Shown: positions 4,272 through 62,550, counted from the first letter of the stretch. The stretch: 64,000 nucleotides of DNA from Candidatus Limnocylindrales bacterium (GCA_038239115.1 JBBSFD010000013.1:2560-66559), one strand, 5' to 3'. Translations and numbers: made by a program. The notes: generated by a model not told the origin, from the sequence alone.

Positions 4272-4480
4272 GGTTTCTTGCGTTTAGCAATCCCCGTGGT
4301 CTTAGGCCGAAAGTGGGCCGGATTTCTGCCCGTCGACCAGGTGACGGCCCCCGGAATCGGCTCGAGTTGTGCTTGAGCCGGCACGAACTCTCGCATGAAC
4401 CGGCCGAATCACTCGATCTGGTCCGCCCAAGGTCCGCCTAACACTACGGTCGTTGATATTCGCCAGAAACCAGCGGCCCC
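4272..4480 (-). repeat. palindromic structured element, copy A (long subfamily, inverted relative to copies B-E)
   Basis: The reverse complement aligns over about 205 nt with 29764-29977. Arms are TTTCTGGCGAATATCAACGACCGTAGTGTTAGGC and GCCTAAGACCACGGGGATTGCTAAACGCAAGAAA. Confidence 0.85.
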
Positions 4481-5163
4481 TGACCGATCCAGCCGGTTCG
4501 ACGAGCCAGTGCCGGATCGCCACGTTCCCAGCGGGGAAGGCCGCATCGAGCACCTCGCGATGGCGCATGACGCGCCTCCTGGCTGCCGCGGTGTCCGGCA
4601 TCACCAGCAGTCGAGAAGTACTGCCGGCGATCCTGCCGAACCGCTCGCGGCCGATTCGATGAGCCAGACGGACCTTCTCATCAAGCCGGCGCAGGGTTTC
4701 CTCGACCGACGTGAGCTCCGTCTTGACCTCGATCACGAGAAGCGATGCCGTCGCTCCATGGAAGGCGAGGATGTCGATCGAGCCACGCTCGCCATACACC
4801 GAGTAGGTGACTTCGAGCTCCGCCTCCCAAACCGAAGCTCGTGAGCAACCGAACAACGAGGCCCACGAGGGCTGCGTGTCGTTCGTCGAGCGTCCGGTCC
4901 AGGCTGCCAGCCCGCCAGCGAACCTCAACATCGGCTCGAGCATCGAGGGCAAGGAGGATCCGCCGGAGTGTCCTGACGGACAACGCGTCGATGTGACCGC
5001 GTTCCACGAGCGATACCGCGGCCTGCGACAAAGCGCATTCCACAGCCAGGTCGGATTGGCGCCAGCCGCGGCGACGACGCAGCGCTCGGATGATGAGGCC
5101 GACGCGTCGATCGTCCACGGGGCCAGCCTGACGCCGCCCGCTCACCGGGCCCGTATTCGGCAC
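4302..5163 (-). pseudogene. frameshifted XRE-type HTH plus PD-(D/E)xK nuclease-like gene, 3' end fused into repeat copy A
   Basis: Two overlapping minus-strand ORFs are out of frame by 1 nt. ORF 4681..5163 carries the HTH (LIIRALRRRRGWRQSDLAVECALSQAAVSLVERG). ORF 4302..4952 carries GERGSIDILAF..LLVIEVKTEL. Removing one T of the TTT run (plus-strand AAA 4829-4831) joins ..LLTSFG to WEAELEVTYS. Length 862 nt = 3n+1. Confidence 0.7.
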
Positions 5164-5276
5164 TCACCCCGGGCTGGCTCGACCGAAGATTGCTCGATGC
5201 GCGACACTGTGCATCGGAGCCGGCGGCCGAACCAGGAATCCGACTCGAAGCGCGAACGTCCAGGAGGACTGATTCT

Positions 5277-6791
5277 GTGGCCAAGGTGACGATGCCCCAG
5301 CTCGGCGAGAGTGTGGCCGAGGGGACGATCGGCAAGTGGCTGAAGAAGCCGGGCGACCACGTCGCCAAGTACGAGCCGCTGCTCGAGGTGATCACCGACA
5401 AGGTCAACGCCGAGGTGCCGTCGCCGGTCGAGGGCACGCTCACGGCGATCCTTGCCGAAGAGGGCGCGACGGTTCCCAACAACGCCGAGATCGCCGAGAT
5501 CGAGACGGCCGACGAGGCCAGCGCCGGCGCCAACGGCAAGTCAGGCAAGACAGCCGCGGCCGCCGCGACGCCGGCGCCGGCTGCCACCGCCTCGGCTCCC
5601 GCCAGCAGCCCGCCCGTGGCCACGCCCGCGCCCGCCACCCCGGCGCCTGCCGCCGCGTCCGCACCCGCTGCTCCCGTCGCCGTCGGGCCAGCCGGCTCGG
5701 ACGAACGCCCGGAGCGAGCCGCCGCCGTCGACACGGCCACCCTGCCCGGCGATGCCGACGCGCGGATGACGCCAGCCGTGCGACGCCTGCTCCGTGAGCA
5801 CGGCCTGACCGCGGCCATGATCATCGGCACCGGCGGAGGCGGCCGGATCACCCGCGACGACGTGTCGAACTACGTCGAGACGCAGCGCACGAACGCCTCG
5901 GTCGGCGGCCAGGTCGTCGGCGGCGCGTCCTCGGCCGGGCCCACGGCCACGCCGTCGGCTGGCACCGCAGCAACGCCCGCCGGTTCGGCCCCGCGCCCGG
6001 CCGCCACTCCCAACGGGCCAAGCGCAGCCAGCCCGGCAACCAAGACCGCCAGCAGCAGTGCGCCGATCAGCTTCCCGGCCGGCGCTGACGAAGTCCTGCT
6101 GCCGATGACCTTGATGCGCAAGGGCATCGCCGCCCAGATGACCCGGGCCCTGAGCATCCCCCATGCCTACGTCCAGATGGAGGTCGATGCGGCGAACCTC
6201 GTCCGCCTGCGCGAGTCGACGAAGGCCGCCTACCAGGCCAGCGAGGGCATCTCCCTGAGCTACGTGCCGTTCGTGGTCAAGGCCGTGGTCGAGGCGCTCA
6301 AGCGCCACGGCACGTTCAACGCCAACTGGACCGACGAGGGCCTGCTGGCCAAGCGCCGGATCAACATCGGCGTGGCCGTCGCCGTCGACGACGGGCTGAT
6401 CGTGCCGGTCATCCGCGACGCCGACGAATTGTCGATCCATGGCCTCAACCAGGCGATCGCCGAAGTGGCCGCCCGCGCCCGGGCCAACAAGCTCCGGCTC
6501 GACGACTTTGGCGGCGGCACGTTCACGATCGACAACACCGGCTGGCTCGGCTCGAACATGACCATGCCGATCATCAACGCGCCCGAGGTCGGCATCCTGA
6601 CCATGGAGGCAATCACCAAGCGGCCGGTCGTGCGCGAGACGGCCGAGGGTGACGTGATTGCCATTCGGCCCGTGATGAACGTGGTCCTCGCCCTGGACCA
6701 TCGAGCCAACGACGGTGCTGGCGGGGCCGCCCTGCTGCGCGACATCAAGGCCTGGCTCGAAGCAGTCGGACCCGACACGGCGATCTACTAG
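5277..6791 (+). CDS. dihydrolipoamide acyltransferase (E2) of the 2-oxoacid dehydrogenase complex
   Basis: GTG at 5277 is preceded by AGGAGG at 5262-5267. Contains a lipoyl domain (MPQLGESVAEGTIGKWLKKPGD), Ala/Pro linkers, a subunit-binding domain (MTPAVRRLLREHGL) and a catalytic domain with DHRANDGAGGA. Confidence 0.9.
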   Translation: MAKVTMPQLGESVAEGTIGKWLKKPGDHVAKYEPLLEVITDKVNAEVPSPVEGTLTAILAEEGATVPNNAEIAEIETADEASAGANGKSGKTAAAAATPAPAATASAPASSPPVATPAPATPAPAAASAPAAPVAVGPAGSDERPERAAAVDTATLPGDADARMTPAVRRLLREHGLTAAMIIGTGGGGRITRDDVSNYVETQRTNASVGGQVVGGASSAGPTATPSAGTAATPAGSAPRPAATPNGPSAASPATKTASSSAPISFPAGADEVLLPMTLMRKGIAAQMTRALSIPHAYVQMEVDAANLVRLRESTKAAYQASEGISLSYVPFVVKAVVEALKRHGTFNANWTDEGLLAKRRINIGVAVAVDDGLIVPVIRDADELSIHGLNQAIAEVAARARANKLRLDDFGGGTFTIDNTGWLGSNMTMPIINAPEVGILTMEAITKRPVVRETAEGDVIAIRPVMNVVLALDHRANDGAGGAALLRDIKAWLEAVGPDTAIY

Positions 6792-6803
6792 AAAGCCAGC
6801 GCG

Positions 6804-7772
6804 ATGCGCGTCGTCGTCACCGGCGCAACCGGGTTCATCGGCGGCGTCGTCGTGCGCCAGCTGCGGGCCCGGGGTGACCAGGTCGTCGCGATCGTCCGCG
6901 ACCCGGCCCAGGCCGAGGACCTCAGGGACCAGGGCGTCGAGCTTGCGACCGGCGACCTTGGCCAGGTCGACCCGATCGTCGAGCAGCTGGCCGGGGCCGA
7001 CGCGCTCATCCACATCGCCGGCCAGTACCGGATCGGCATTCGCGTCTCGGATCGCCCGGACATGCTCGACGCGAACCTGGGCACGACCAGCCGCGTCCTG
7101 GACGCCGCGGCCAAGGCCGGAACACCCCGGATCGTCTACACCTCCACCGCCAATGTCCTGGGCAACACCCATGGTGAGGTGGTCGGCGAGTCCCATGTCC
7201 GCGACCTGGCCGAGGGCTTCTTCAGCTACTACGACCTGACCAAGTACCGGGCCCACGAGCTGGCGGCGGCGCGAATCGCGGGCGGGGCTCCGGTCATGAT
7301 CGCGATGCCCGGCGGGGTCTATGGCCCAGACGACCATTCCGAGGCGGGTGGCCAGCTGGCCCAGGCCCAGGCGGGCAAGCTGCGCTACGTCGCCCTCGGT
7401 GATATCGGCCTCAGCTGGTCGTACGTCGACGACGTCGCCGACGGGATCGTCCGGATCCTCGACCAGGGTCGCCTGGGCGAGTCCTACATCCTCAGCGGTC
7501 CGCCGGGGCTGCTCAAGGACGCGATCCAGGCGGCGGCCATCGCCGGGCGCCGGAGGCCGCCCCGGCTGACCCTGCCGACCGGCGTGCTGCGCCTGTTCAT
7601 CCCGGTCAGTCGCCGCTTCGGGGCCGTAGCCGGCTTGCCCGCCAACCTGGCCGAGACGATCAAGGCCGCCGACGGCGTCACCTACTGGGCGAGCGCGGCA
7701 AGGGCCGAGCGCGAGCTTGGCTTCCGGGCGCGCGACCTGGCCTCCGGCCTGCACGCCATGTTCAACGTCTAG
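6804..7772 (+). CDS. NAD-dependent epimerase/dehydratase (extended SDR) family protein
   Basis: 322 aa. N-terminal Rossmann motif VVVTGATGFIGG; YxxxK present (YDLTKYRAHE). Confidence 0.8.
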   Translation: MRVVVTGATGFIGGVVVRQLRARGDQVVAIVRDPAQAEDLRDQGVELATGDLGQVDPIVEQLAGADALIHIAGQYRIGIRVSDRPDMLDANLGTTSRVLDAAAKAGTPRIVYTSTANVLGNTHGEVVGESHVRDLAEGFFSYYDLTKYRAHELAAARIAGGAPVMIAMPGGVYGPDDHSEAGGQLAQAQAGKLRYVALGDIGLSWSYVDDVADGIVRILDQGRLGESYILSGPPGLLKDAIQAAAIAGRRRPPRLTLPTGVLRLFIPVSRRFGAVAGLPANLAETIKAADGVTYWASAARAERELGFRARDLASGLHAMFNV

Positions 7773-7789
7773 CCCTACACTCAGAAATC

Positions 7790-8896
7790 ATGGGACGCGA
7801 ACTGCCGATCTTCGAGCCGCCGACCGCGAACCCGCATCACGCGGGCACGGCCGGCCTATCGATCGCGCTCGGTGGCGGATTTGACGCCGGGTCGGCAACA
7901 GCACCCGCGCCCGACGGCTCGACGGCCCTGCGTCGGCACCCCGACTGGATCAAGGCCCGGATCCCGTCCGGCGAGAACTACCACGAGCTCAAGGCGCTGA
8001 TGCGCGGGGCCACCCTCAACACGGTGTGCGAGGAGGCCCACTGCCCGAACATCGGCGAGTGCTGGGACCAGCGCACGGCCACGATCATGATCCTGGGCGA
8101 TACCTGCACCCGGGCCTGTGGCTTCTGCGCGGTCAAGACCGGCCGGCCAACCTGGTTCGATGCCGACGAGCCGCGCCGGGTGGCCGAGACGATCGCCAGC
8201 CTCGGCCTCGAGCACGTGGTCGTCACCAGCGTCGCCCGGGACGACCTGCCCGACGGCGGGGCCTCGGTCTTCGCCGAGACGATCCGGCGCCTGCGCGAGA
8301 CGTCGCCGGGCATGGGCGTCGAGGTCCTGATCCCCGACTTCAACGGCACCGACGAGCCGCTCAAGGCCGTGATGGCCGCCCGGCCGGACATCCTCAACCA
8401 CAACCTCGAGACGGTCGAACGGCTCCAGAAGCCGGTCCGCAAGCGGGCCCGCTACGACCGCAGCCTGTCGGTCCTGGAGCGGGCCAAGGAATATGCCCTG
8501 GCCGACGGCTGGACGGTGCACACGAAGTCGAGCCTGATGGTCGGCCTGGGCGAGACCCGGGACGAGCTCAGCCAGGCCTTCCGCGACCTGCGCGCGGTCG
8601 ACTGCGACATCCTCACGATCGGCCAGTACCTGCGCCCCTCGACCGAGCACCTCGAGCTCATCCGCTACTACCACCCCGACGAGTTCGCTGAGATGAAAGT
8701 CGAGGCGCTGGCGCTGGGCTTCCGCCACGTCGAGTCCGGGCCGCTCGTCCGCTCGAGCTACCACGCCCGTGACCAGGTCCCGGGGGCCGAGCTGCGCCGG
8801 TTGCGGCGCCGGGCCACGCTCGACGCCCAGGGCCGAATCGTGCCGGGCGGGCTGATCCCCGGCGGGCTCGGCGAACCCGACAGCCTGGCCGGCTGA
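7790..8896 (+). CDS. lipA: lipoyl synthase
   Basis: 368 aa. Has both cluster motifs, CEEAHCPNIGEC and the radical-SAM CTRACGFC, plus SSYHA near the C-terminus. N- and C-terminal extensions are present. Confidence 0.92.
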   Translation: MGRELPIFEPPTANPHHAGTAGLSIALGGGFDAGSATAPAPDGSTALRRHPDWIKARIPSGENYHELKALMRGATLNTVCEEAHCPNIGECWDQRTATIMILGDTCTRACGFCAVKTGRPTWFDADEPRRVAETIASLGLEHVVVTSVARDDLPDGGASVFAETIRRLRETSPGMGVEVLIPDFNGTDEPLKAVMAARPDILNHNLETVERLQKPVRKRARYDRSLSVLERAKEYALADGWTVHTKSSLMVGLGETRDELSQAFRDLRAVDCDILTIGQYLRPSTEHLELIRYYHPDEFAEMKVEALALGFRHVESGPLVRSSYHARDQVPGAELRRLRRRATLDAQGRIVPGGLIPGGLGEPDSLAG

Positions 8897-8898
8897 GC

Positions 8899-9951
8899 AT
8901 GTCGACCCTCTCGCGCAAGACCGCCCTGGCCGAGCTCCACTGTCACCTCGGCGGGGCCGTCACGCCTTCGATCATGTGGGGCATCGCCCATTCCCAGGGG
9001 ATCAAGCTGCCGACCAAGGACTACTGGGAATTCCGGGACATGATCACCGTCTCGAACCGGCGCAGCCGGAGCTTCGACGGCTATCTCCAGCTGTTCCACT
9101 GGACCGAGCTGATCCAGTCCTCGCCGCTGGCCGTCGAACGCTCGGTCTACGAGGTGATCGGCGGGGCCTATCGCAAGAACAACATCACCACGACCGAGCT
9201 GCGCTTCAACCCGATGAAGCGCAACCGGGGCGGCGAGCAGGACCTCGACCACATCATCGCGGCCGCGGTCCGGGGCATGGACCGGGCCTCGCTCGAGTAT
9301 CCGGTCAAGCCCGGCCTGATCTTCTGCCTCGACCGGGCGTTCCCCTACGAGCTCAACGAGATCATCGTGGAGAAGGCGATCACCTGGCACGATCGGGGCA
9401 TCGTCGGGGTCGACATCGCCGGACCCGAGAGCTCGACCTTCCGGGTGGCCGACTACCGCCGCCTGTTCCGCCGGGCGCGCCAGTTCGGCCTCGGCCTGAC
9501 CGTCCATACCGGCGAATCCGGGCCGGTCGAGGAGGTCGCCCGGGTGATCGAGCTGCTCGAGCCCGACCGAATCGGTCACGGGGTCAAGGCGGCCTACGAC
9601 CCGCGGGCGATGGAGATGCTGCGCGACCGGGGCATCGTCCTCGAGATCTGCCCTGCCTCGAACCTGAACACCCGGGTCGTGGCCAGCTGGGAGGAGTTCC
9701 GCTGGATCTTCGACCAGTTCCGGCGCAACGAGGTCCGCTTCACGATCAACACCGACGGCCCGGAGATGCTCAAGACGTACATCCGGGACGAGCTCCAGAC
9801 CCTCGGCCGGCTGGGCATCCTGTCGCCCGAGGATCAGCGCCAGGCCATCGAGACGGCCCAGGCGGCGTCCTTCGTGCCCAACGTCACCGACGTCATCCCG
9901 TCGGTGCTCGAGCCGGCTCGCCGGGTCGAAGTCGAGCGCGAAGAGGCCTGA
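8899..9951 (+). CDS. adenosine/adenine deaminase family metallohydrolase
   Basis: 350 aa. Motifs ELHCHLGG, VHTGE, IGHG and INTDGP (TDG where canonical ADA has TDD). Confidence 0.8.
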   Translation: MSTLSRKTALAELHCHLGGAVTPSIMWGIAHSQGIKLPTKDYWEFRDMITVSNRRSRSFDGYLQLFHWTELIQSSPLAVERSVYEVIGGAYRKNNITTTELRFNPMKRNRGGEQDLDHIIAAAVRGMDRASLEYPVKPGLIFCLDRAFPYELNEIIVEKAITWHDRGIVGVDIAGPESSTFRVADYRRLFRRARQFGLGLTVHTGESGPVEEVARVIELLEPDRIGHGVKAAYDPRAMEMLRDRGIVLEICPASNLNTRVVASWEEFRWIFDQFRRNEVRFTINTDGPEMLKTYIRDELQTLGRLGILSPEDQRQAIETAQAASFVPNVTDVIPSVLEPARRVEVEREEA

Positions 9952-9956
9952 CGCCA

Positions 9957-9998
9957 GGTCAGTCGGGGCGGGTCAGTCGGGGCGGGTCAGTCGGGGCG
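9957..9998. repeat. perfect 14-nt tandem repeat x3 (GGTCAGTCGGGGCG) at convergent gene ends
   Basis: Units at 9957-9970, 9971-9984 and 9985-9998. The third unit supplies the last codons and the TGA stop of the minus-strand regulator that ends at 9987. Confidence 0.9.
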
Positions 9999-10712
9999 GG
10001 CCGAGATCCGGTAGGTGCAGCAGCGATCGCCCGAGGCGATGTGCGTCTCGCGGGTCACCTCCGCGCCCAGGACATCGCGGAACAGCTCCAGCTCGGCCTC
10101 GCAGGCCGCCGGGTTGCCATTGGCCACGTGGAAGATCGCGCAGTTGTGCTCGCGCAGCCGGATCGAGCCGTCCGGCGACAGCTCGGCCCCGCACAGGTAG
10201 CCCTGCTCGTCCTGGATCACGGCCAGCTCGCGGACTCGCTCCAGGAATGGGGCCTGGTCGCCGACCGCCTCGTCGAGGCGGCGTTTGATTCGTTCGGCGG
10301 TCTGGGTCCGGCGGGCGCTGAAGACCCGGTCGACCAGCTCGCGGCCGCCGATCGAATCGATCGCCGCGATCAGTCCAGCGGCCAGGCCGTCGTAGTTGGC
10401 CGGGAAGAGCTGTTGGGCGCTGGCCGTGACGTCGTACAGGTGGCGCGGCCGGCCAACGCCATGACGCTCGGTCCGGCGCGAGACGAGGCCGTCGGTCTCG
10501 AGCACCCGGAGCTGCTGCAGGACGCCCGTCCGGCTGGCGCCGACCAGGACGGCCAGCTGGTCGGGTGAGCTTGGACCGGCGGTCCGCAGGGCCAGGACGA
10601 GCTCCCGGTGGAGGGTCGGGGCGTGGCCTTCGAGGACGGCGCCGGCAGCGGCGTGGCCATTCGCGCCGCGCGATGCGGCCGGTTGCGGAACGTCGGGCTG
10701 TGGGCCACCCAT
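9987..10712 (-). CDS. winged-helix (ArsR/DeoR-like) regulator with SufR-type C-terminal Cys ligands
   Basis: Only the last 241 codons of ORF 9987..11849 look coding; the rest is antisense to the acyl-CoA dehydrogenase. HTH is LAVLVGASRTGVLQQLRVLETDGLV. Cys pattern is HNC-x12-C-x27-C (CAIFHVANGNPAAC...DRCC). Confidence 0.7.
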   Translation of the reverse strand: MGGPQPDVPQPAASRGANGHAAAGAVLEGHAPTLHRELVLALRTAGPSSPDQLAVLVGASRTGVLQQLRVLETDGLVSRRTERHGVGRPRHLYDVTASAQQLFPANYDGLAAGLIAAIDSIGGRELVDRVFSARRTQTAERIKRRLDEAVGDQAPFLERVRELAVIQDEQGYLCGAELSPDGSIRLREHNCAIFHVANGNPAACEAELELFRDVLGAEVTRETHIASGDRCCTYRISARPD

Positions 10713-10799
10713 TCCGCTGAGGCTAGCAGAGGCCCGCCCGGCCCGCTGTGGAGCGACCGGGGAGCGCCCGGCCAGGACGTGTCGGTGTACCCTCGCCGG

Positions 10800-11987: not shown

Positions 11988-11990
11988 CGG

Positions 11991-12497
11991 CTAGGGATTG
12001 CCCCCGCCGCCGCCATCGCTGCCGTTGCCGCCGTCGCCCGCGGCGGTGGTCAGGACCTGCTGCAGGGCGCTTCGGAACTGGCTGCCCCACGGCCCCTGGC
12101 CCGTAGCCACGTAGGGCGACGGGTCGAGCGACTCGTACGTCGCCGGATCGGTCACGAAGCTCTGGGCACAGGTCGCGACCTCGATGGAAAGGCGGTTCCA
12201 GGTGGCCGAGTCGGCAAAGATGTAGATGTGGATGCGGACCGGCGCGGCCTGGTCCAGGCCACTCGCGGTGAAGCCGATCGCGGTGGGGACCAGCTTCGGA
12301 TCCTTGCACCCGGCATCGCCCGAGACCTGCTGGTTGACGGTGATCCCGGCGTCCGAGAGGGCGGCCACGATGCCCGGGAAGTTGGCCGGACTGGGCGCCG
12401 GCAGGTCGGCCGTCTTCGTGCCGCAAGCAACCACGGCCAGGCTCAGGCCGAGCGACCCGACAAGCAGCGCGACGTGTCGGGCGATCGACCGGGACAT
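11991..12497 (-). CDS. lipoprotein, function unknown
   Basis: Starts at Met 12497 with signal peptide and lipobox MSRSIARHVALLVGSLGLSLAVVAC. Gly-rich tail. The longer track ORF adds an Arg-rich leader that is unlikely to be real. Confidence 0.65.
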   Translation of the reverse strand: MSRSIARHVALLVGSLGLSLAVVACGTKTADLPAPSPANFPGIVAALSDAGITVNQQVSGDAGCKDPKLVPTAIGFTASGLDQAAPVRIHIYIFADSATWNRLSIEVATCAQSFVTDPATYESLDPSPYVATGQGPWGSQFRSALQQVLTTAAGDGGNGSDGGGGGNP

Positions 12498-12666
12498 CGC
12501 CCCGAGGCTACCACCCGACCGCCGTTTCCGCGTCCGGCGGCCAGGCCGTTTGCCGGCCGATCGCCGGCCGGGTCGGCGTATCGTAGGATTGGCGTGCCCC
12601 GGCCACTGCTCGACGTCCGTCGAGGTCGTTCGTCGAGCCCGCCCTTCAGCCCCGATCGAGGACCCG

Positions 12667-13509: not shown

Positions 13510-13513
13510 CCCG

Positions 13514-19959: not shown

Positions 19960-20430
19960 CGCCCCTATTTAGGCCTCCAGCTTCGGTGGTCACTGATCCA
20001 CGTCCTGGTCACATGTGCCAGGCATCAAACCTAGATCGTGGTCACTGGCCGTCAAGGGACCCAACTGGGCATGCGGTGCCATGTTGCATCAGCCGATGGT
20101 CCTACCCGGACGAGGGTGCGTGGCCGGCCTGACCGCGCGGGCTCCGGCTTTCCGTCAGGTCCCTCGAGCGCCCGTTTGACACGAACCGGGCCGAGCGCCA
20201 GTCAGATCCTTGCTGGAGAAAGGCTTATGGCGACTCGCGGGTCGCTGGGACGCCCAAGGCGCCTCCGACGGACGCTGCCGGACCTGGATCTGAGCACGAA
20301 CCGACACGGCACGTCGCACCGAGGCCCTGGATTCCGCCGTCCGGGCGGCGCGAACCGGCGTAAGCCTTGCTCCAGGAGGTATTTGACCGAAGGTCGGGCC
20401 TGAGCCGCCGGCGGCGCACGAGGGATGCGG

Positions 20431-29729: not shown

Positions 29730-29763
29730 GCCGGCTCTGGCCCGCGACTGCGGCCCAGCATCC

Positions 29764-29977
29764 GGGGCCGCTGGCCGCTGGTTTCTGCCGAATATCAACG
29801 ACCGTAGTGTTAGGCGGACCTTGGGCGGACCGGACCTGGTGATTCGCCGGTTCAGGCGAGGGTTCGTGCCGGCTCAAGCACACCTCGAGCCGGTTCCGAG
29901 CCCCGTGGCCTGGCCGACGGGCAGAAAGCCGGCCCACGCTCGGCCTAAGACTACGGGGATTGCTAAACGCCAGAAAC
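29764..29977 (+). repeat. palindromic structured element, copy B (long subfamily)
   Basis: GGGGCCGCTGG(CCGCTGG)TTTCTGCCGAATATCAACGACCGTAGTGTTAGGC ... GCCTAAGACTACGGGGATTGCTAAACGCCAGAAAC. About 85% identical by eye to the reverse complement of copy A. Confidence 0.85.
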
Positions 29978-30317
29978 GAAGCCACGAACAGCGCGGTTCG
30001 CGGTCGAGTCGTGCTTGGCTCGGTCGAAGGCGGCGTCGAAGCCGAGGCCGGCGGCTCGGGTCGGCGGCCGGGCCCAGTCCGACCCCTATCCGATTCGAAT
30101 CCGGGTGCATGGTCACTGCCGGCGCAAGGCGCCGCCAAAGGCTCTTCACCTTGGCGCGAAGGCCCGCGATCGACGTGCCGTGCAGCCCGATTCACGCTCG
30201 GGGGTCGGTTGGAGGTCAGGCCCGTGGCGGCCCTCCGGCGATCGACCGAGGCCTTGGGCCCGATCCTCCGCCCATGGTGTCCATGCACGCGGAATCGAAG
30301 GCCACTAGCCCGGAGGC

Positions 30318-41960: not shown

Positions 41961-42138
41961 GGGTTCTTCCGGAATATCAGCCCGTGGAGTAGTACGAAAG
42001 GAATCAGCCTGCAAGCGGCCGCCTGCGGCGCGGATCGGGCCGAGCCAAGCGTGGAATCCGGGCCAGCCGCCGCAAGTGGCTCAAAGAGTGGCTCGAGTCC
42101 TTCCGTTGCACTACCCGGGTTGATAATCCGGAAGGAAC
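41961..42138 (+). repeat. palindromic structured element, copy C (short subfamily, divergent apex)
   Basis: GGGTTCTTCCGGAATATCAGCCCGTGGAGTAGTACG ... CGTTGCACTACCCGGGTTGATAATCCGGAAGGAAC. Confidence 0.8.
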
Positions 42139-42171: not shown

Positions 42172-42203
42172 AAAAGACCCCGTTCGATCGATCGAACGGG
42201 GTC
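42172..42203 (-). terminator. rho-independent terminator of the ArsR-trxA operon
   Basis: Palindrome GACCCCGTTCGATC|GATCGAACGGGGTC (42176-42203), followed on the minus strand by TTTT (plus-strand AAAA 42172-42175). Confidence 0.6.
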
Positions 42204-42252
42204 TCGATGCGCGCAGTGCGAGCCGCCGCGAGGGCGGCCTCGGAGCGAGTGG

Positions 42253-48785: not shown

Positions 48786-49346
48786 GTGCTCGAGGCGGCC
48801 GTCCGGGACATCCTCTCCGAGATCGGCGAGGACCCCCATCGGGAGGGCCTGCGCCGGACACCCGGCCGGGTCGACCGGATGTACCGCGAGCTGACCGCCG
48901 GCTATCACGTCGATCCCGAGCGGCTGATCAACGGCGCAATCTTCGCGGTCGACTACAACGAGATGGTCGTGGTCAAGGGCATCGAGTTCTACTCGCTGTG
49001 TGAGCATCATCTCCTGCCCTTCTTCGGGACGGTGGCAGTCGGCTACCTGCCCCACGAGCGGGTCATCGGCCTTTCGAAGATCCCCCGGATCGTCGAGATG
49101 TATGCCCGCCGGCTGCAGGTCCAGGAGCGCCTCACCCAGGAGATCGCCGAGTTCCTGATGGACCGGATCGAGCCGTACGGGGTGGGCGTGGTGATCGAGG
49201 CCCAGCACATGTGCACGGCCATGCGCGGCGTGCGCAAGGGCGGGGCGACGATGGTGACGAGCGCCGTCCTGGGCCAGTTCCGGCGGAGCCAGCGGACCCG
49301 CGAGGAGTTCCTGGCCCACCTCGAGCGAGGCGACAACCGGCACTGA
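48786..49346 (+). CDS. folE: GTP cyclohydrolase I
   Basis: 186 aa. Motifs [25 protein letters not shown] and QERLTQEIA. Confidence 0.92.
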
Positions 49347-49380: not shown

Positions 49381-49546
49381 GCTATCTCCTGGCGAGATCA
49401 AATCGGCCGAATCCGTCGGGGCCGACGGTCTGCGAGCGATCGATTTCGCCGAATCGATCTCCCCAGGAGATCAGGACGGCCAATTCGCTCGAGCAGGGGG
49501 CCGGCAGATCCAATGAATCGGCCGATTTGACCCCTGGGGAGATACC
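49381..49546. repeat. composite inverted-repeat element with nested hairpins in a convergent intergenic region
   Basis: Left arm TATCTCC..TCAAATCGGCCGAATC (49384-49413). Right arm GAATCGGCCGATTTGA..GGAGATA (49515-49544). Internal hairpins at 49413-49428 and 49438-49459. A related central unit lies at 49457-49486. Confidence 0.6.
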
Positions 49547-55007: not shown

Positions 55008-55054
55008 TCGGCGCACCGCGGGGGCCTGAGCACGGGCCGGTGTAGATTCGAGGC

Positions 55055-56305
55055 ATGCCCGAAGTCCCTGCCAGCCCCAACGGCCATGTCTATATCGTCA
55101 GCGCCCAGCGCACCCCCATCGGCAAGTTCGGCGGCGCCCTGAGCGGCGTTACCGCGACCGAGCTCGGCGGGGTCGCGATCCGGGCCGCGGTCGAACGGGC
55201 CGGGCTGCCGGCCGGAACGCCGATCGACGAGGTCCTGATGGGGCAGGTCCTCCAGGGCGGTGCGGGCCAGGCGCCGGCTCGCCAGGCTGCCCTGGCCGGT
55301 GGCTTGCCCGACACGACCAGCGCAACCACGATCAACCGGGTCTGCGGCTCGGGCCTCAAATCAATCATGCTGGCCGCCGCCGAGATCACGGCCGGTGACG
55401 CCCGGGTGGCCGTCGGGGGCGGCATGGAGAGCATGAACCGCGCGCCCTACCTGCTGAACGGCGCTCGCTTCGGCTACCGCCTCGGTGACGGGACCTTGGT
55501 CGACTCGACGATCCACGACGGACTGTGGTGCGCCTTCGAGAACTGCCACATGGGCACCCACGCCGAGCGGGTCGCGATCCACGATGCGGTCAGCCGCGAG
55601 GACCAGGACGCCTTCGCTCTGCGCAGCCACGAGCGGGCTATCGCGGCCATCGATGGCGGCCGGTTTGATGCCGAGATGGCCCCGGTCACGGTGCGCGACG
55701 CCAAGGGCCGAGAGACCGTGATCTCGGTTGACGAGGGCCCTCGGCGCGATTCGTCGCTGGAGGTGCTCGCTCGGCTCAAGCCCGTCTTCCCGCTGCCGGA
55801 CGGCCCGGACCGGGGCTCGGCCACGGATGGGACCGTGACCGCCGGCAATGCCCCGGGGATCACCGACGGCGCGGCGGCCACGGTCGTGGCCAGCGAGCGC
55901 GCGGTCGAGCAGCTCGGGCTCAAGCCGCTGGCCCGGATCATCGGCTACAGCCAGGCCGAGGTCGCCCCGAAGTGGCTGTTCCTGGCGCCGGTCACCGGCG
56001 TACGCCGCTTGCTCGAGCGGATCGAGATGCCGATCGAGGCGTTCGACCTGATCGAGATCAACGAGGCCTTCGCGGCCCAGACCCTGGCCGATGGCCGCGA
56101 GCTGGGCTTCGACTGGTCGAAGGTCAACGTCAATGGCGGTGCGATCGCGCTGGGCCATCCAATCGGCGCCAGCGGTGCCCGGATCGTGGCCACGCTCCTG
56201 CACGAGCTCGAACGGCGCGCCGGCCGTTACGGCCTGGCCACCCTGTGCCTGGGCGGCGGTGGCTCGGTCGCCGTGGCCTTCGAGCGGATGCCGTCGAATG
56301 GCTGA
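55055..56305 (+). CDS. acetyl-CoA C-acetyltransferase (thiolase II)
   Basis: Active-site Cys in INRVCGSGL; [17 protein letters not shown]; CLGGGGSVA. Confidence 0.92.
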
Positions 56306-57806
56306 GGCCGCCGTCGAGACCCGGACGTTCCAGCTGTTCATCGCTGGCGAGTGGGTCGATTCGGTCAGCGGCCAGACATTCGAGAGTCGCAACCCGGCCG
56401 ACACCCGCGACCTGGTCGGGGAGTTCCAGACGGGCACGGCCGCCGATGTCGCCCGGGCGATTCGCGCCGCCGAGATCGCCGGCGTCGCCTGGCGCCGCAC
56501 GCCGGCCCCCAAGCGGGGCGAGATCCTGTACCGCTTCGGGGCGCTGCTGGCCGAGCACAAGGAGCGCCTGGCCCGGGCGATGACCCGCGAGATGGGCAAG
56601 GTCCTGGCCGAGGCCCGGGGCGACGTCCAGGAGGGCATCGATATCGCCTTCCTGATGGCCGGCGAGGGCCGCCGGCTGTTCGGCGACACGACCCCGTCCG
56701 AGCTGCCCGACAAGTGGGCGATGTCGATCCGCGAGCCGATCGGCGTGGCCGGAATCATCACCCCCTGGAACTTCCCGATGGCGATCCCGTGCTGGAAGAT
56801 GATGCCGGCGCTGGTCAGCGGCAATACCGTCGTGTTCAAGCCGTCGAGCGACACGCCTCACTGCGCCACGCTCCTGGTCGAGCTCATGGCCGAGGCCGGC
56901 TTCCCGCCGGGGACCGTCAACCTGGTCACCGGGCCGGGGGCCGAGGTCGGCGATGCGATCGTGGGCAGTCCCGATGTCCCGGTGATCAGCTTCACCGGCA
57001 ACACGGAGACCGGCCGGCGACTGGCGACCCAGGCGGCTACCCGGCTCAAGCGGGTCAGCCTCGAGCTGGGTGGCAAGAACGGGATCGTGGTCATGGCCGA
57101 CGCGGATCTCGACCTGGCCACCGACGGGATCCTGTGGTCGGCCTTCGGAACCACCGGCCAGCGTTGCACCGCGGCCAGCCGGGTGATCGTCGAGCGGCCG
57201 GTCGTCGACGCCCTGCTCGAACGGCTCGAACGCCGGGCCAATGGACTCCGGCTCGGTTCGGGCCTCGAGCCATCGACCGACGTCGGGCCGTTGATCAACG
57301 CGGCGGCCCTCGACAAGGTGTCGGGCTACATCGAGGTCGGCCGGCGCGACGGCGAGCTCGTGACCGGCGGCGGACAAGGGAGCGGCGCCGCCCTCGACCA
57401 CGGCCACTTCTTCGAGCCGACGATCTTCGCCGGCGTGGCCCCGATGGCCCGGATCGCCCAGGAGGAGATCTTCGGGCCGGTCCTGTCGGTCATCCCGGTC
57501 GACGACTACGACGCGGCCGTCACGGCCCTCAACCAGATCCGCTATGGCCTGTCGTCCTCGATCTTCACCCGCGACGCGAACACGGCCTTCCGGGCGATGC
57601 GCGATTTCGAGACCGGCATCGTGTACATCAACGCCGGCACGATCGGCGCGGAGACGCACCTGCCCTTCGGCGGGACGAAGGAGACCGGCAACGGCCATCG
57701 CGAGGCCGGCCACGCCGCGCTCGATACGTACACCGAGTGGAAGTCGATCTACGTCGATTTCTCGGGCCGACTCCAGAAGGCCCAGATCGACAACCAGCCG
57801 GGCTGA
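56298..57806 (+). CDS. NAD(P)-dependent aldehyde dehydrogenase
   Basis: Start [20 protein letters not shown] overlaps the thiolase end by 8 nt. Motifs [16 protein letters not shown] and EEIFGPV. Confidence 0.9.
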
Positions 57807-57827
57807 GCGTGCCCGAGGCTGTGTGAT

Positions 57828-59261
57828 TCAGCTGGGCACGAACTCGGCCTCACTCTCGACACGCCGGTCCCGGCCAGTGCGCCGGCTGGCCCGATCCTTG
57901 CGCCGGCTCATCTCCTCGTCCGCCACCTTCATGAAGCCGTCCAGCTCGTCCTTGCCGGCTTCCTCCTTTGACCAGAGCCGGCCGACGTCGTCCTTCGCGG
58001 GCCTGAGCTCCTTGAGGGCCGGCAGGAGGCAGGCGCCCGCCGTCGCCGAGACGCGCAGTGGGCCGCGCACAGGGTGCAGGATCGTCGGGTCGATCAGCCG
58101 GCGCAGTCGATCGATGACCTCCTCGGCGGCTGCTTCGTCGCTGATGCCTGTCGCGAGCGCGAGGAACTCGTCGCCGTGCAGGTGCGCGATGAAGAGGTCT
58201 GGGCCGCTGGCCATCTGGAGGCGACGTCCGACCTCGAAGAGGACGTCGTCGCCCACGTTGTGGCCGTTGTCGTCATTGACGCGCTTGAAACCGTCGAGGT
58301 CGAGGTAGATGAGGCATCTGCTTGGCTGGGTCGCATCGCCGCGCCGCAGGTCGCGCCAAACCTGATCGAACATGTGGCGCGTCGGAAGGCCGGTCTTCTC
58401 GCTATACCGCAGCCGCCAGCTCGACTGGTGGTGGGCCATAGACCGGCTGGCGGCCAAGTCCGCGACGACGATCAGGACCGGGGCCCACCAGAGGCCTTGG
58501 ACGTACACGAGGGCTGCCAACCACGCGATGCACGCCTCGGCGCCCCCCGCGACTGCCCAGTCGACCCTGCTGACGATGGCAAAGGCCCCGTTCAGATGGC
58601 GGCCCTGCCGGGCGTACCAGAGAGCGAAGCCGAGGCCTTGTTCGATCGTGACCGCCACCGCGGTGCCGATGAGGATCGCGCCGAGATCGCGCACCTGGAT
58701 CGGATCGATGGGCGCGAGGCGGACGCCGAGCATCACCACGGCCCCCACGGTCGCGGCGACGCAGCGCACAGCGTGGCCTCCGAGCAGGTCGAACCGTGGG
58801 GTTCCTTCGCGAAATGCCCGGATCGGAACGGTGCCGAGGAGCGCGACCCAGGCCGCGGCGGCAGGACCTCCGAGCAGTCCGGCCGCCATGACCGGGGCGA
58901 TCGAGTAGACGAATGGGACCTGCCCGGTCCCTCGGGTGCCCTGGGTGGCGGTCGCGACACAGATGGCGACCCACAAGGTGCACCCGGTCAGGGCCGGATT
59001 GAGGCCGAACGGCGCATACGGGAGCTGCATCGCCCCGAAGAACGGGTAGAACACCACGGTCGCGGCAATGACGACCGCGATGCCGACGGCGCAGTACACG
59101 GCCACCAAGGCGGCCAACAGCCGAGGATTCGCATCAGCCGCAGATGTTGCGTGCAGGAGATGCCCATCCCGCCGGAGCAGCGCGATCATCCGAGGCATGA
59201 CGGCCAACGCCTGTCGTCCCGCCGACCGGAAGGTCGAGGACAACCCGGACGCCGAGCTCAT
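57828..59261 (-). CDS. membrane-anchored GGDEF-domain protein with variant HGDEF motif
   Basis: The N-terminal roughly 270 aa are polytopic. The C-terminus reads YLDLDGFKRVNDDNGHNVGDDVL..FIAHLHGDEFLAL. Confidence 0.8.
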   Translation of the reverse strand: MSSASGLSSTFRSAGRQALAVMPRMIALLRRDGHLLHATSAADANPRLLAALVAVYCAVGIAVVIAATVVFYPFFGAMQLPYAPFGLNPALTGCTLWVAICVATATQGTRGTGQVPFVYSIAPVMAAGLLGGPAAAAWVALLGTVPIRAFREGTPRFDLLGGHAVRCVAATVGAVVMLGVRLAPIDPIQVRDLGAILIGTAVAVTIEQGLGFALWYARQGRHLNGAFAIVSRVDWAVAGGAEACIAWLAALVYVQGLWWAPVLIVVADLAASRSMAHHQSSWRLRYSEKTGLPTRHMFDQVWRDLRRGDATQPSRCLIYLDLDGFKRVNDDNGHNVGDDVLFEVGRRLQMASGPDLFIAHLHGDEFLALATGISDEAAAEEVIDRLRRLIDPTILHPVRGPLRVSATAGACLLPALKELRPAKDDVGRLWSKEEAGKDELDGFMKVADEEMSRRKDRASRRTGRDRRVESEAEFVPS

Positions 59262-59394
59262 GCCCGGACCCCACCTGGCGATATGCAGGCGTCTATCACC
59301 CGCATGGAACGCGCCTGACTACCGGGCGGACACGAAACGGCGAGCCACCCCCCAGAGCACGAAGGCGACGAGCCGATGAAGAGCCCGATGGGCG

Positions 59395-60177
59395 TCACTT
59401 GACCCCATCGGTAGGTGGCGGCACGAGGCCGCAATCGGGCGTCGTACAGAGGTCCAGCCCAAGTTCGGCGAGACCCTCGGCCAGCGGTGTGAAACCAAGG
59501 TTGCCGCCAAAGGTCCGAGAGGTCACGCCGGCCGGGATGCCGCGCACCAGGACAACGCTACCCGAGTCGCCACCGCCGACCTGGAGGGTCGACACGATCA
59601 TGCACGGGAAGTAGGAGCCGTCCTCGGCCGGCGGCTGGAGGTTCTCGCCTTTCCCGGTCACGGTTCCGGTCCGGTAGAGGTTGCGCCCGTCCATCTCGAT
59701 CGGGTCTCCGACCGTGATCTCGGAGCAGGTCAGTGACTTCGCGCCGGGTTCGAGGATCCGGTAGCCGCCGACGCCCAGGTCGATGACGTTGAGGTGGCCC
59801 CACGGGATGCGGTCAACGGCGACCACGACGTAGTTCATGTCCGATGCATGGCAGGTGTGACCGGCGTACGGGCAGGTTGCGTCCTGTGCCCATGGCCCGG
59901 CGACCCCCTGCTCGCCTTCGACCGTGCCCTCGTCGCCGCAGTGCGGGGACGAAGTCAGGACGATGGTGTCGCCGTGGCGGGCGTAGACGCCAGCCGAACA
60001 GTAGCCCGGGATCTGCTGGCCTGCGAGGACCGGCGGATCGTAGAGCGGCGTGGTCCGCCGCGGGGTCGTGACAGTCGAGACGCCCCAGAACAGGCCGATC
60101 CCGAGCAGCACGCCGACGAGCGCGACAATGAGGAGTCGACGAGTGCGGACTAGCGGACTCGTCCTCGTGGCTGGCAT
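59395..60177 (-). CDS. secreted/anchored S1 (chymotrypsin/alpha-lytic-type) serine peptidase
   Basis: Start MPATRTSPLVRTRRLLIVALVGVLLGIGLFWG at 60177. Catalytic Ser in GGGDSGS. Multiple Cys pairs. Confidence 0.7.
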   Translation of the reverse strand: MPATRTSPLVRTRRLLIVALVGVLLGIGLFWGVSTVTTPRRTTPLYDPPVLAGQQIPGYCSAGVYARHGDTIVLTSSPHCGDEGTVEGEQGVAGPWAQDATCPYAGHTCHASDMNYVVVAVDRIPWGHLNVIDLGVGGYRILEPGAKSLTCSEITVGDPIEMDGRNLYRTGTVTGKGENLQPPAEDGSYFPCMIVSTLQVGGGDSGSVVLVRGIPAGVTSRTFGGNLGFTPLAEGLAELGLDLCTTPDCGLVPPPTDGVK

Positions 60178-60394
60178 CGGCGGTGGTCCTCGCGTGCGGA
60201 CGGTTTGGCAGAAGTGTTCGCGCTGATTGATACAAGCAGCACGAGCCGCCCTCGCCAATCCACTGGATGTCCTGCCCCACTCCCGAGACCATGGAGCGGG
60301 CTGTGGCCCGGGAAGCCTCTTCGGTCGACCGGATTCGGGTGAACGAACGGCTGCTTCGGGGTGACCGGAGCCCCCGATGGGGTATCCTTCGCCC

Positions 60395-60469
60395 GGGCCG
60401 GTAGCTCAACGGCAGAGCAACTGACTCTTAATCAGTTGGTTGGGGGTTCGAATCCCCCCCGGCTCACCA
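60395..60469 (+). tRNA. tRNA-Lys (anticodon CUU), CCA encoded
   Basis: Acceptor GGGCCGG/CCGGCTC, anticodon arm ACTGA-CTCTTAA-TCAGT, T arm GGGGG-TTCGAAT-CCCCC. Confidence 0.9.
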
Positions 60470-60541
60470 CCCCGCCGCGCACGAAATGAGGCCCCCGGCA
60501 TTGCGCCGAGGGCCTCTCGTTTTCGGCCGTACCCCCTCGGG

Positions 60542-60928
60542 TCAGGAGGCCGGCGGTGCCATGCCGAGGAGCTGCCCGAGATCAGGCCTCGTGAACGGGT
60601 CGTCTTCTACGATCTTGCCGTTCGCGAGACGGTAGAAGGTCAGACCCTCAGCCGTGACTTTCTCCCCACTGGGACGGGTGATCTCGCTAGTGAAGCGAGC
60701 GACCACCACATCCCCGTCGGCCACGAGGTCCCGGATGGTGAAGTGCATGCCCGAGACCGCAGCAGCCATCGCGCCGAGGATCCCCTTGAAGCCGGCGAGA
60801 TCGGCACCGCCCATCGCGGTGTTCACGTAGTTCGTGGCCGCCAGCTCGTCGAGCACGGCCAGGTTCTGTCCGTCCAGGACCTCGGTCATGAACTGGCGGA
60901 CGACGGCCTTGTTCTCTTCAGTCGACAT
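60542..60928 (-). CDS. SnoaL-like ester cyclase family protein
   Basis: 128 aa from Met 60928 (AGGAG upstream). MSTEENKAVVRQFMTEVLDGQNLAVLDELAATNYV..FYRLANGKIVE. Confidence 0.8.
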   Translation of the reverse strand: MSTEENKAVVRQFMTEVLDGQNLAVLDELAATNYVNTAMGGADLAGFKGILGAMAAAVSGMHFTIRDLVADGDVVVARFTSEITRPSGEKVTAEGLTFYRLANGKIVEDDPFTRPDLGQLLGMAPPAS

Positions 60929-61071
60929 GACGGGACGCTCCTTGGGAGAGTTGCTGGGCGCCGAGTATGGGCCGGTTGACGACCCGGCACCGGCCGGAGT
61001 TGACGTCGTCGGGGCGCGAGCATCTGCTCGTGATTCAGGTCGAGCGACGACCTGTCCGTTGGCCCGATCCT

Positions 61072-61236
61072 CCGGAATATCAGCGGGTGGAGTAGTACGG
61101 ATCGAATCTGGCCCCGGGAGGCCGGGTCCGCCCGGATCAGGGCTCGGGCCACGCACGAGTGAGTTCACGCAGCGGGCCTCGGACGCCAAAAGGGGACCCG
61201 ACTTCTTCCGTAGTACTCCGTGGATTGATAATCCGG
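61072..61236 (+). repeat. palindromic structured element, copy D (short subfamily)
   Basis: CCGGAATATCAGCGGGTGGAGTAGTACGG ... CCGTAGTACTCCGTGGATTGATAATCCGG. Differs from copy E at 6 positions by my alignment. Confidence 0.85.
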
Positions 61237-61283
61237 AACAACCGAGCCGGCCAGGGGCTCCCGGAACAACCGAGCCGGCCAGG
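61233..61283 (+). repeat. 28-nt-period tandem duplication at the 3' edge of copy D
   Basis: CCGGAACAACCGAGCCGGCCAGG occurs at 61233-61255 and 61261-61283, separated by GGCTC. It is single-copy at the equivalent place after copy E. Confidence 0.85.
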
Positions 61284-61396
61284 AACCGGATCAGATTAAT
61301 GCCTAGCCGAGCGCCCTGGAACGCCGGCTACAGTCAGCCTATGCTCGGTGACGCCCAGCGGCGGCAAGCCGCTCGCCACTCATCGGAGGGACGCTG

Positions 61397-62282
61397 ATGG
61401 CTCGACAGCTGCTTCTCATTTGCGCGGTCGTTGGCCTGCTCGCCGGGTGCTCGTCCGCGGCGACTCCCGCCGGAGGTCAGCCGTCGAGTTCGGTGTCGGC
61501 CACGTCGCCCGCTCTTTCGCCAGGCACCAGCCCGTCACCCGCGACGTCTTGATCAGCTCCAAGCGTCGGTGACGCGTGGCATCTCGTGGCTGTCGGAGAC
61601 TCGATTCAGTTCAACAGCCCAGCCGACTGTCCCGGCTGCACGGGCCTCGTGGATCGCTATGCCAAGGCGATCAACGCCAAAACCGGTCACGGTGTCAATG
61701 TCTCCAATGACTCAGAACACAGTGGCCTGCAGGTCGATGATCTCCTGACAGAGTTGTCGAACGCCTCGGAGAAGAACACGCTCGCCCACGCGGACATCAT
61801 CGTGGTCGGGATCGCCCACAACGACGTGCCCATGAACCGCGACGACGATCCCTGTGATGGGGCCGGCGGCGACAATCCGGACTGGTCCAAATACACCGCA
61901 GCGTGTGTCAAGGCTGACGTCGCGATCTTCCAGCCCAAGTACGAGAGTGTCTTCAAGCAGATCGCGGCGCTGCGGGCCGGAAAGCCAACGATTCTCCGGG
62001 CCCTGAACCGCTACAACGACTGGAACGACGGGGCCACTCTCTCGCCCGCGGGCGTCGCCGCCACGAAACTCGTGATCGACGCCTGGAGCAAGATGACCTG
62101 CGGGGCAGCCAAGGCGAACGGCTTCCTGTGCGCCAACATCTACCGCGTTCAATGGCCACGACGGACTGAAGCCGTCCGGCAACCTTCTCGCTGCCGACTA
62201 CACCCACCCGCCCGACAAGGGCAACGAGGTGATTGCTCAGACCCTCATCGACCTCGGACTTGCACCGTTGGCTACCCCGTAG
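61397..62282 (+). pseudogene. SGNH/GDSL hydrolase lipoprotein gene with an in-frame TGA and a frameshift
   Basis: ATG at 61397 (GGAGGG upstream) encodes the lipobox signal MARQLLLICAVVGLLAGC. An in-frame TGA lies at 61550-61552, verified codon by codon. The same frame continues into VAVGDSIQF (block I). Near 62145-62148 the frame shifts by 1. The shifted frame reads FNGHDGLKPSGNLLAADYTHPPDKGNEVIAQ (block V DxxH) to TAG at 62280-62282. Confidence 0.8.
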
Positions 62283-62385
62283 AACCGTTGGTCACCCTGT
62301 AGAATCCTGGCGTCGATCCCGCGCAAGCGGCCCACCTAACCGGTTCGCCGGCTCCCCACGCTGACTGCAGGCGCCAGCCGATCTT

Positions 62386-62550
62386 CCGGAATATCAGTGG
62401 GTTGAGTAGTACGGAACGAATCTGGCCCCGGGAGGCCGCGTCCGCCCGGATCAGGGCTCGGGCCACGCACGAGTGAGTTCACGCAGCGGGCCTCGGACGC
62501 CAAAAGGGGACCCGACTTCTTCCGTAGTACTCCGTGGATTAATAAGCCGG
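62386..62550 (+). repeat. palindromic structured element, copy E (short subfamily)
   Basis: CCGGAATATCAGTGGGTTGAGTAGTACGG ... CCGTAGTACTCCGTGGATTAATAAGCCGG. The shared flank AACAACCGAGCCGGCCAGGAACC.GATCAG continues for about 50 nt, as it does after copy D. Confidence 0.85.

Follow-up and report, generated by a model that had tools for sequence, protein, structure and literature searches.

Interspersed palindromic repeats linked to the 3' end of a putative XRE-HTH/PD-(D/E)XK nuclease gene in a Limnocylindrales bacterium

In the REPIN-RAYT system two inverted repetitive extragenic palindromic (REP) sequences form a hairpin element, and a Y1/HUH transposase whose single-copy gene is passed on vertically disperses this element (PMC3116915, PMC3337134). 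This system is the closest working analogy for a family of imperfect palindromes, about 175-215 bp in size, present in a 64,000-nucleotide stretch of the genome of Candidatus Limnocylindrales bacterium (GCA_038239115.1, JBBSFD010000013.1:2560-66559; the whole stretch is called the window below). One of its five copies, A, overlaps the 3' end of a gene coding for a putative nuclease with an XRE-type helix-turn-helix (HTH) domain, and the other four, B to E, are solos lying apart from such a gene. Solos are homologous to the palindromes at the 3' ends of genes of this kind, the two arms of a palindrome co-vary within gene lineages, recent copying has taken place within the genome, solos of different genomes occupy non-syntenic positions, and the linked gene has a conserved catalytic-type motif. 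The family is a real and not an ordinary one, and is best classed as interspersed palindromic repeats with a dedicated nuclease gene. We tentatively favour, at slightly below an even chance, a reading in which a family of DNA palindromes resembling REPINs and MITEs (miniature inverted-repeat transposable elements) is tied to that gene. The features concerned are the following.

4273-4478, minus strand: copy A, which is the 'home' form joined to the gene; the 5' arm is coding and is read from about 4478 downward, the 3' arm is the inverted complement of the 5' arm
4302-5163, minus strand: gene for an XRE-type HTH plus PD-(D/E)XK-like nuclease protein, recognised by Pfam HTH matches, tblastn with family proteins, invariant residues and an AlphaFold2 (AF2) model
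29773-29977, plus strand: copy B, a solo of A, extending over 29762-29977 with its upstream remnant; 44 nt past the stop codon of a methyltransferase gene
41961-42138, plus strand: copy C, a solo of a second subfamily (TTCTTCCGGAATATCAGC...); 39 nt past the stop codon of a DinB-like gene, which is convergent with a thioredoxin gene
61064-61255, plus strand: copy D, extending to 61313 with its right flank; between a SnoaL-like gene (minus) and an SGNH pseudogene (plus)
62378-62569, plus strand: copy E, extending to 62599 with the shared right flank; between the end of the SGNH pseudogene and a convergent Transgly_assoc gene

Like REPINs, these elements are dispersed, intergenic, hairpin-forming, non-autonomous palindromes. 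The linked nuclease-type gene looks single-copy and mostly vertically inherited and is physically joined to one copy of the repeat, and the repeat subfamilies track the gene lineages. Unlike RAYT, the associated protein combines an XRE-type HTH with a PD-(D/E)XK-like domain instead of being a Y1 HUH transposase, and a Pfam search found no Y1_Tnp domain in it. The linked copy overlaps the reading frame, whereas REPs flank the RAYT gene. The elements described here are also about twice as long, with a non-palindromic centre of 60-100 nt and an apparently far lower copy number, and their mobilisation is putative. Since there is neither a Y1 transposase nor any short (20-40 nt) tagged (GTAG/CGTC) REP unit, they do not belong to the REPIN-RAYT family; a GTAG tetramer does occur, inside the stem (CCGTAGTG) and not as a head tag.

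Anatomy of the palindromes and the gene end

A hidden Markov model (HMM) built from the five copies matched only those five in the window (E values of 1e-41 to 1e-49), and the positions given by an earlier sequence-only reading of this DNA hold to within a few bases. The MAFFT alignment of the copies spans the full length of the element. In the repeat search A and B appear as an inverted pair that is 89-93% identical (89.8% over 206 nt), D and E as a direct pair of 192 nt that is 96% identical, and both arms of C at 71-76% to D and E; C is altogether 69-76% identical to these two. The fold of each copy is a single long, imperfect hairpin (z = -3.1 to -5.9 compared with dinucleotide shuffles), in which 50-60 nt of each arm are complementary and 60-100 nt in the centre are not. 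The basal stems read TTCTTCCGG...CCGGAAGAA or TTTCTGGCG...CGCCAGAAA. The copies retain two conserved boxes rich in A+T, GAATATCA and TGATAAT, and a GTGCACGA-like motif at the centre; the boxes stand out because the G+C content of the window is 70.4%. A, B, C and E each follow a co-oriented gene, 0-76 nt past its stop codon, and are oriented as the coding-like arm would require, so that the placement of four of the five copies at gene 3' ends, proposed previously, is roughly right for these four, with D located between divergently oriented genes.

The earlier description of all copies as intergenic does not apply to A, whose 5' arm makes up the 3' end of an open reading frame (ORF). This arm consists of the last 20-60 or so codons of the nuclease gene, and the 3' arm is their inverted complement, situated downstream of or around the stop codon. 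The tail encoded by the 5' arm is G-R-W-F-L-A-N-I-N-D-R-S-V-R-R-T-L-G-G-P-D-R-V-I-R-P. The arm begins at the G-R-W-F-L codons, and in the AF2 model WFL is the last beta-strand, followed by a disordered C-terminal tail. Across the family the tail follows the pattern WFL-(~12 variable residues)-GGxxRVRRP and is disordered and basic.

The same gene is present at about 17 loci in genomes and contigs. Most of them have a lineage-specific hairpin of about 160-205 nt starting from the WFL codons, folding is less clear at a few of them, and the hairpin sequence differs strongly between lineages. A search of metagenomes added 80 further family genes, 48 of which could be tested for an inverted complement of the tail within 200 nt, with z >= 3 taken as significant; such a complement was found in 27 of the 48. 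The gene-palindrome pairing is therefore frequent, not universal. Even in protein lineages with only 40-60% identity, and in different genomic contexts, the palindrome is found again at the gene end, the neighbourhoods of the metagenome genes including FeS assembly, xanthine dehydrogenase, GGDEF-EAL, ArsA, LOG and DnaK genes. No transposase or integrase was seen beside these metagenome genes. Variability of the stem-coding codons shows almost no codon periodicity (entropy of 1.54, 1.45 and 1.65 bits at the three codon positions), which places the constraint on the nucleic acid and not on the protein.

Complementarity of the arms was evaluated using nhmmer, pair counting and own-versus-cross arm scoring. 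An alignment of 14 copies, comprising those of the window and relatives from other genomes, supports three helices: the basal stem, TATCA/TGATA, and GTAGT/ACTAC with its extension. In this alignment 83.7% of the cells pair, compared with 73.8 +/- 1.5 in shuffles (none of 500 reached the observed value), pairing drops to 33-49% when the partners are slid, and 12 of the 26 pairs have changed on both sides. The anatomy outlined in the sequence-only reading, with a conserved basal stem and TATCA/TGATA helix and with compensatory changes in both the upper and the basal stem, is therefore real. The A-A mismatch that it placed beside the TATCA/TGATA helix in C, D and E is present in C and D but not in E, whose 3' arm differs at this point (TTAATAAG). 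Among 13 gene-linked hairpins, 10 have a 5' arm that matches its own downstream 3' arm better than that of any other lineage (mean own-arm score of 26.2 versus 16.6 +/- 3.0 for cross-lineage comparisons).

The nuclease gene lies between the genes for E1beta (3131-4204) and E2 (about 5277-6791) of a 2-oxoacid dehydrogenase operon. In the window it is split by a 1-nt frameshift near 4830 (4826-4832) into an N-terminal part (4681-5163) and a C-terminal part (4302-4952), and family proteins accordingly give two tblastn high-scoring segment pairs (5058-4831 and 4829-4305; 78-87% identity to P0010). The frameshift is located in a CCCAAACC run and may reflect either gene decay, leaving a pseudogene in this strain, or an assembly error. 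Full-length orthologs have 250-290 aa. Their N-terminus is an XRE HTH (Pfam HTH_3/HTH_31/HTH_37), closest to restriction-modification (R-M) controller proteins and HipB, and the C-terminal domain has no Pfam family. In the latter, E102, D115, E130 and K132 are invariant in 34 sequences, forming the pattern E...D...ExK, and there are weak, sub-threshold Pfam matches to six PD-(D/E)XK families (HSDR_N_2, MTES_1575, PDDEXK_11, UPF0102, YhcG_C and Mrr_cat). The AF2 model (mean pLDDT of 82) has an order of strands and helices that fits the PD-(D/E)XK core (alpha-beta-beta-beta-alpha-beta). Foldseek aligned the model with R2 retrotransposon proteins over 122-239 columns, beyond the HTH domain; going by the known architecture of R2 and not by the Foldseek output itself, we presume that these alignments fall on its restriction-like endonuclease domain. 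On the strength of sequence motifs and the model, the linked protein is assigned to the PD-(D/E)XK nuclease superfamily, with putative catalytic E/D...D...(D/E)xK residues. The sequence-only reading had reported no mobility-type gene in the window; there is indeed no transposase, but this gene beside A had been overlooked.

An exhaustive profile search at E <= 1e-30 places 877 clusters in the protein family, and the names given to its members in databases are those of XRE regulators only. Among the best 120 matches there was one family member per long chromosome or contig, which suggests one such gene per genome. A phage origin of the gene was considered and rejected, as viral contigs hold only HTH-domain matches, and so was membership in a defence system, as PADLOC and PHROGs match the HTH domain only. 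In many related genomes the gene sits between those for E1beta and E2 on the minus strand, as in the window, and in some relatives E2 follows E1beta directly (after 17 nt in locus L149 and, by tblastn coordinates, about 15 nt in L128). The junction is highly variable among Limnocylindria (loci L098-L149): it can be empty, can hold the XRE-nuclease gene in either orientation, or can hold other inserts of up to about 3 kb, and many genomes lack E2 altogether within 4 kb of E1beta. At L098, the closest relative, a GC-rich tandem array of GGGCGTGGCCGCCGGG-like units (5000-5100) lies between the E1beta stop codon and the gene-linked hairpin; the window has no equivalent there.

Limnocylindria-type Chloroflexota are the only hosts of the family found so far. 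Scanning 185,579 species genomes (one per species) with the 5'-arm pattern gave mostly chance matches. About nine loci in five genomes stood out, and the true relatives, confirmed by BLAST and nhmmer, belong to five uncultured 'Chloroflexia' or Limnocylindrales metagenome-assembled genomes (MAGs). A tighter DNA pattern found no further relatives in the same species-genome scan. E1beta assigns the window to Limnocylindria, with OY970185.1 as the closest genome (96% E1beta identity), and the source population of the window is also present in the Logan assembly of SRR24807096.

Origin and persistence of the solo copies

Copy A is about 90% identical to B and 74% identical to its own positional ortholog at L098, and no hairpin was found within the 3-kb flanks of 80 orthologous methyltransferase loci. 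Therefore B was copied from A, or A from B, within the lineage, and B is a solo recently copied from A in this genome. Of the gene it has kept the tail residues 208-241 (HMM positions) and some 11 nt that precede the palindrome (GGGGCCGCTGG), and no more; a 7-nt unit, GCCGCTG, is present twice in tandem at this 5' edge (29766-29779). Solos start at a discrete boundary near the base of the palindrome. They include the codons of the last beta-strand, and B includes three codons more, which points to copying from gene to solo. The possibility that solos are decayed copies of the full gene was rejected, as there are gene remnants upstream of none of them.

An HMM based on solos matches the gene-linked hairpins of L098, L179, L273 and L307. 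The 5' arm at L273, where the protein tail is LFFRITSPGG, is nearly identical to that of solo L025b, and D and the 3' arm of gene-linked L179 have 92% identity over 39 nt. C, D and E are solos belonging to a second subfamily, which exists in gene-linked form in other lineages, and the different solo subfamilies each match a different gene lineage. Solos in other MAGs occupy positions that are non-syntenic with the window; L084 and L047, 83% identical and located in one MAG, are a recent pair.

The site of C was followed in relatives through the DinB-thioredoxin spacer. The same element is present at the same site in L269 (DinB 97% identical), and strongly diverged yet palindromic elements are found in L267, L268, L270 and L271, relatives at 88-92%, the L267 element being 30 nt past the DinB stop codon. 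No empty spacer was found among the DinB orthologs: each held the same element, a diverged palindrome or a palindrome of another type. Some solos therefore persist, or are replaced, at one site over the long term. An exact-protein lookup of the thioredoxin returned only the source contig of the window. A perfect 30-nt palindrome after the thioredoxin gene (42175-42204, AAAAGACCCCGTTCGATCGATCGAACGGGGTC...), conserved in L266 and L267, is probably the terminator of this gene.

D and E share about 58 nt of right flank beyond the palindrome, and a tandem duplication of about 28 nt (GGAACAACCGAGCCGGCCAGG...) is located at the 3' edge of D (61232-61287). The SGNH/GDSL lipoprotein gene between them (61398-62302) is frameshifted, with the signal peptide encoded at 61398-61553 and the main frame at 61586-62302. 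Its GC content is 61-64% compared with 70% in the window, tRNA-Lys (60395-60469) is about 1 kb away, and the gene has the appearance of a foreign insertion in decay. The D/E pair may accordingly be a long target duplication caused by the insertion of the SGNH gene and not a product of element mobility. Two copies flanking one foreign-looking gene also recall a cassette, and the family shares with attC sites and Vibrio VCRs the imperfect palindromes, conserved basal boxes, a mismatch at a fixed position in several copies, a variable centre and the location at gene 3' ends. It differs from them in having no RYYYAAC/GTTRRRY core sites at the stem base and no cassette array, its copies being tens of kb apart; no tyrosine-recombinase integrase gene (intI) was found among the flanking genes scanned. 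The idea of a D-SGNH-E cassette was dropped, no relatives of the SGNH gene having been found in JGI metagenome contigs.

Several other palindromes were registered in the window. One of 213 nt at 20188-20400 (52-nt arms, 73% complementary; DNA fold z = -2.4) follows a class-III aminotransferase gene of the minus strand, 31 nt downstream of its stop codon. On visual comparison 34 nt of it are about 71% identical to an arm of the L267-type hairpin, and the two have a GATCTGAGCACGAA centre in common. This could be a further, sixth copy that has diverged strongly; its membership is not supported by BLAST or nhmmer. Another, of 88 nt (49384-49471, 35-nt arms 80% complementary), occupies the spacer after the ORF 48786-49346 and is unrelated in sequence to the A-E family. 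A second MITE-like family has elements of about 180-195 nt with inverted termini of 17-22 nt, (A/T)TTCCGGGTGCATGG(T/A)CAC, and unrelated interiors. It is represented at 30100-30293, just downstream of B, and at L266 (3589-3768), in the DinB-thioredoxin spacer of OY970185.1, at precisely the place that C takes in the window.

RNA element, by-product, transposable element or operator

The sequence-only reading left the choice between a structured RNA and a novel MITE-like repeat. Compensatory changes are of no help here, since covariation cannot discriminate RNA from DNA: any palindrome kept at the DNA level shows it too. Both strands fold with similar energies. Folding does not bear out the plus-strand G-U pairs hinted at earlier for D and E, D having three G-U pairs in the forward and seven in the reverse direction. 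Among 30 hairpins, G.U-type transition mismatches number 85 in the sense and 87 in the antisense direction (33 and 50 in the 22 strong gene-linked hairpins), and transversion mismatches are at least as frequent as either class of transitions. With equal folding of the strands and no G.U strand bias there is no support for a strand-specific RNA. Rfam 15 at the gathering threshold recognised only three tRNAs in the window, and the best permissive match on any of the elements was ybhL (18 bits against a cut-off of 50, E = 6), in keeping with the earlier reader's failure to place the motif in an RNA family. A simple scan of two regions, around C and around D-E, found neither a sigma-70-type promoter nor a U-tract terminator. 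On balance, the family behaves as a DNA palindrome: the MITE-like half of the earlier proposal gains some support from dispersal and in-genome copying, and the RNA half gains nothing from strand-neutral data.

It is nevertheless conceivable, though unlikely, that the copies are cis-acting RNA elements at mRNA 3' ends or in 3' untranslated regions, serving as a stabiliser, a processing site or an atypical terminator, with solos conferring the same property on other genes. The position of A, B, C, E and the L267 element shortly past co-oriented stop codons would suit such a role, as would the long stable hairpin in each copy and the persistence of palindromes in the DinB-thioredoxin spacer across relatives, and a large centre without complementarity is more in keeping with RNA or single-stranded folding than with a cruciform. 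This explanation has to contend with the symmetry of the strands, the abundance of transversion mismatches, the missing terminators and Rfam matches just described, and the location of D between divergent genes. In the OMEGA systems (TnpB/IscB with omega RNA), too, a structured conserved nucleic-acid module extends over a nuclease gene's 3' end and can be found apart from the gene, the 3' overlap being all that they share with the family; here there is no RuvC/HNH nuclease, Rfam match or strand-specific signal, and the protein has a sequence-specific HTH domain of its own.

An alternative of about the same low probability is that the palindromes have no function at all. A one-time fold-back event would have created an inverted duplication of the gene 3' end, segmental duplication or recombination would have produced the solos, and template-switch correction of quasi-palindromes would keep the arms complementary, with neither selection nor a dedicated enzyme at work. 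The stem mismatches do look unconstrained, with transversions equalling or exceeding either transition class, and the low copy number, the lack of a palindrome in 21 of 48 family genes, the small tandem duplications in B and D, and the D/E duplication running about 58 nt beyond the palindrome around a foreign-looking pseudogene would all be expected of such by-products. What they would hardly explain is the recurrence of the palindrome at the gene end in protein lineages 40-60% identical and in different contexts, the discrete boundary near the palindrome base at which solos begin, without gene remnants, and the persistence of the AT-rich boxes (GAATATCA/TGATAAT) and the central GTGCACGA-like motif in a 70% GC genome.

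The elements have terminal inverted repeats, are shorter than about 300 bp and occur in several copies. In this they resemble MITEs, including Rickettsia palindromic elements, Correia and ERIC, which are likewise under 300 bp, with long inverted arms, several diverged copies and no transposase of their own; with the palindromic elements translated in frame among these they also share an arm that can be read as protein. Their small size, long terminal inverted arms and dispersal, and the presence of a second MITE-like family with conserved 17-22 nt termini nearby, could mean that they are ordinary MITEs of a known insertion sequence (IS) family with its transposase elsewhere, the link to the nuclease gene being an old chance insertion at its 3' end, as with the Rickettsia elements. 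We regard this as quite improbable. The solos contain codons of the last beta-strand, and derivation appears to proceed outward from the 3' end of a cellular gene, each solo subfamily matching a different gene lineage. No parent IS turned up in the loci examined: the only attached gene there is the XRE-PD-(D/E)XK one, with the palindrome at one end only. No transposase was found among the annotated immediate neighbours of 15 gene-linked loci, or beside any of about 100 gene-linked or solo loci, and no target-site duplication was seen by eye.

That the arms are inverted half-sites through which a dimeric or tetrameric XRE protein regulates neighbouring genes is very improbable: its HTH being closest to R-M controller proteins and HipB and the conserved boxes in both arms would fit an operator, but 50-60 nt of complementarity per arm far exceed what an operator needs, two unrelated box types (A/B and C/D/E) are found together in a genome that showed a single type of the gene, and most copies are at gene ends, not promoters.

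A possible partnership of nuclease and palindrome

The reading that we favour is thus a REPIN/MITE-like palindrome family tied to its nuclease gene. By analogy with REPIN-RAYT, the solos would be non-autonomous DNA elements, and the nuclease may recognise or cut hairpin or fold-back DNA forms of the element. Such processing could copy the solos or keep them palindromic, much as in REPIN-RAYT with an enzyme of another class; this role of the nuclease in copying or maintenance is something we infer from the comparison.

Several observations weigh against such a partnership. The palindrome is missing in 21 of the 48 testable metagenome genes, and at L183 a family gene in another context keeps the tail and has no palindrome. 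The E1beta/E2 junction is the usual, single syntenic site of the gene, and copy number looks low by pattern scan. No flanking direct repeat that could be a target-site duplication was seen by eye at A-E or their relatives, and neither a base-precise empty site nor a defined terminal cleavage motif was obtained; B is absent from all 80 orthologous loci, where the spacers are too diverged to align the junctions. The diverged palindromes at the C site could reflect long vertical persistence and not repeated insertion. With 60-100 non-complementary nt in the centre, extrusion of a cruciform from duplex DNA is unlikely, so the hairpin would need single-stranded DNA. PD-(D/E)XK hydrolases are, to our knowledge, not known to perform strand transfer alone and cannot by themselves join DNA. 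Finally, the arms could stay complementary through template switching, by which quasi-palindromes correct themselves, with no function being involved.

Taken further, this partnership could represent an undescribed class in which a single-copy gene carries its own substrate, made from its last codons, and seeds and maintains solos by processing hairpin DNA. It would be an intragenomic replicator of the REPIN-RAYT kind built on a wholly different enzyme, and would be widespread in Limnocylindria. We consider this stronger version doubtful. In the searchable literature we found no account of such elements in Chloroflexota or of this gene-palindrome pairing.

For the discovery of RNA motifs, the family illustrates that an RNA cannot be told from a DNA palindrome by compensatory changes in the stems alone; here a test of strand symmetry speaks against RNA. 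A palindrome with one coding arm is also an unusual constraint on the evolution of a gene. As far as we know, REPIN-RAYT has until now been the one well-studied example of non-autonomous palindromic repeats that are long-lived and have a dedicated, host-resident nuclease gene. If our reading is true, the Limnocylindria elements would be a second and mechanistically independent one, and they would provide a function-level lead for a protein family of 877 clusters whose members are named only 'XRE family transcriptional regulator'.

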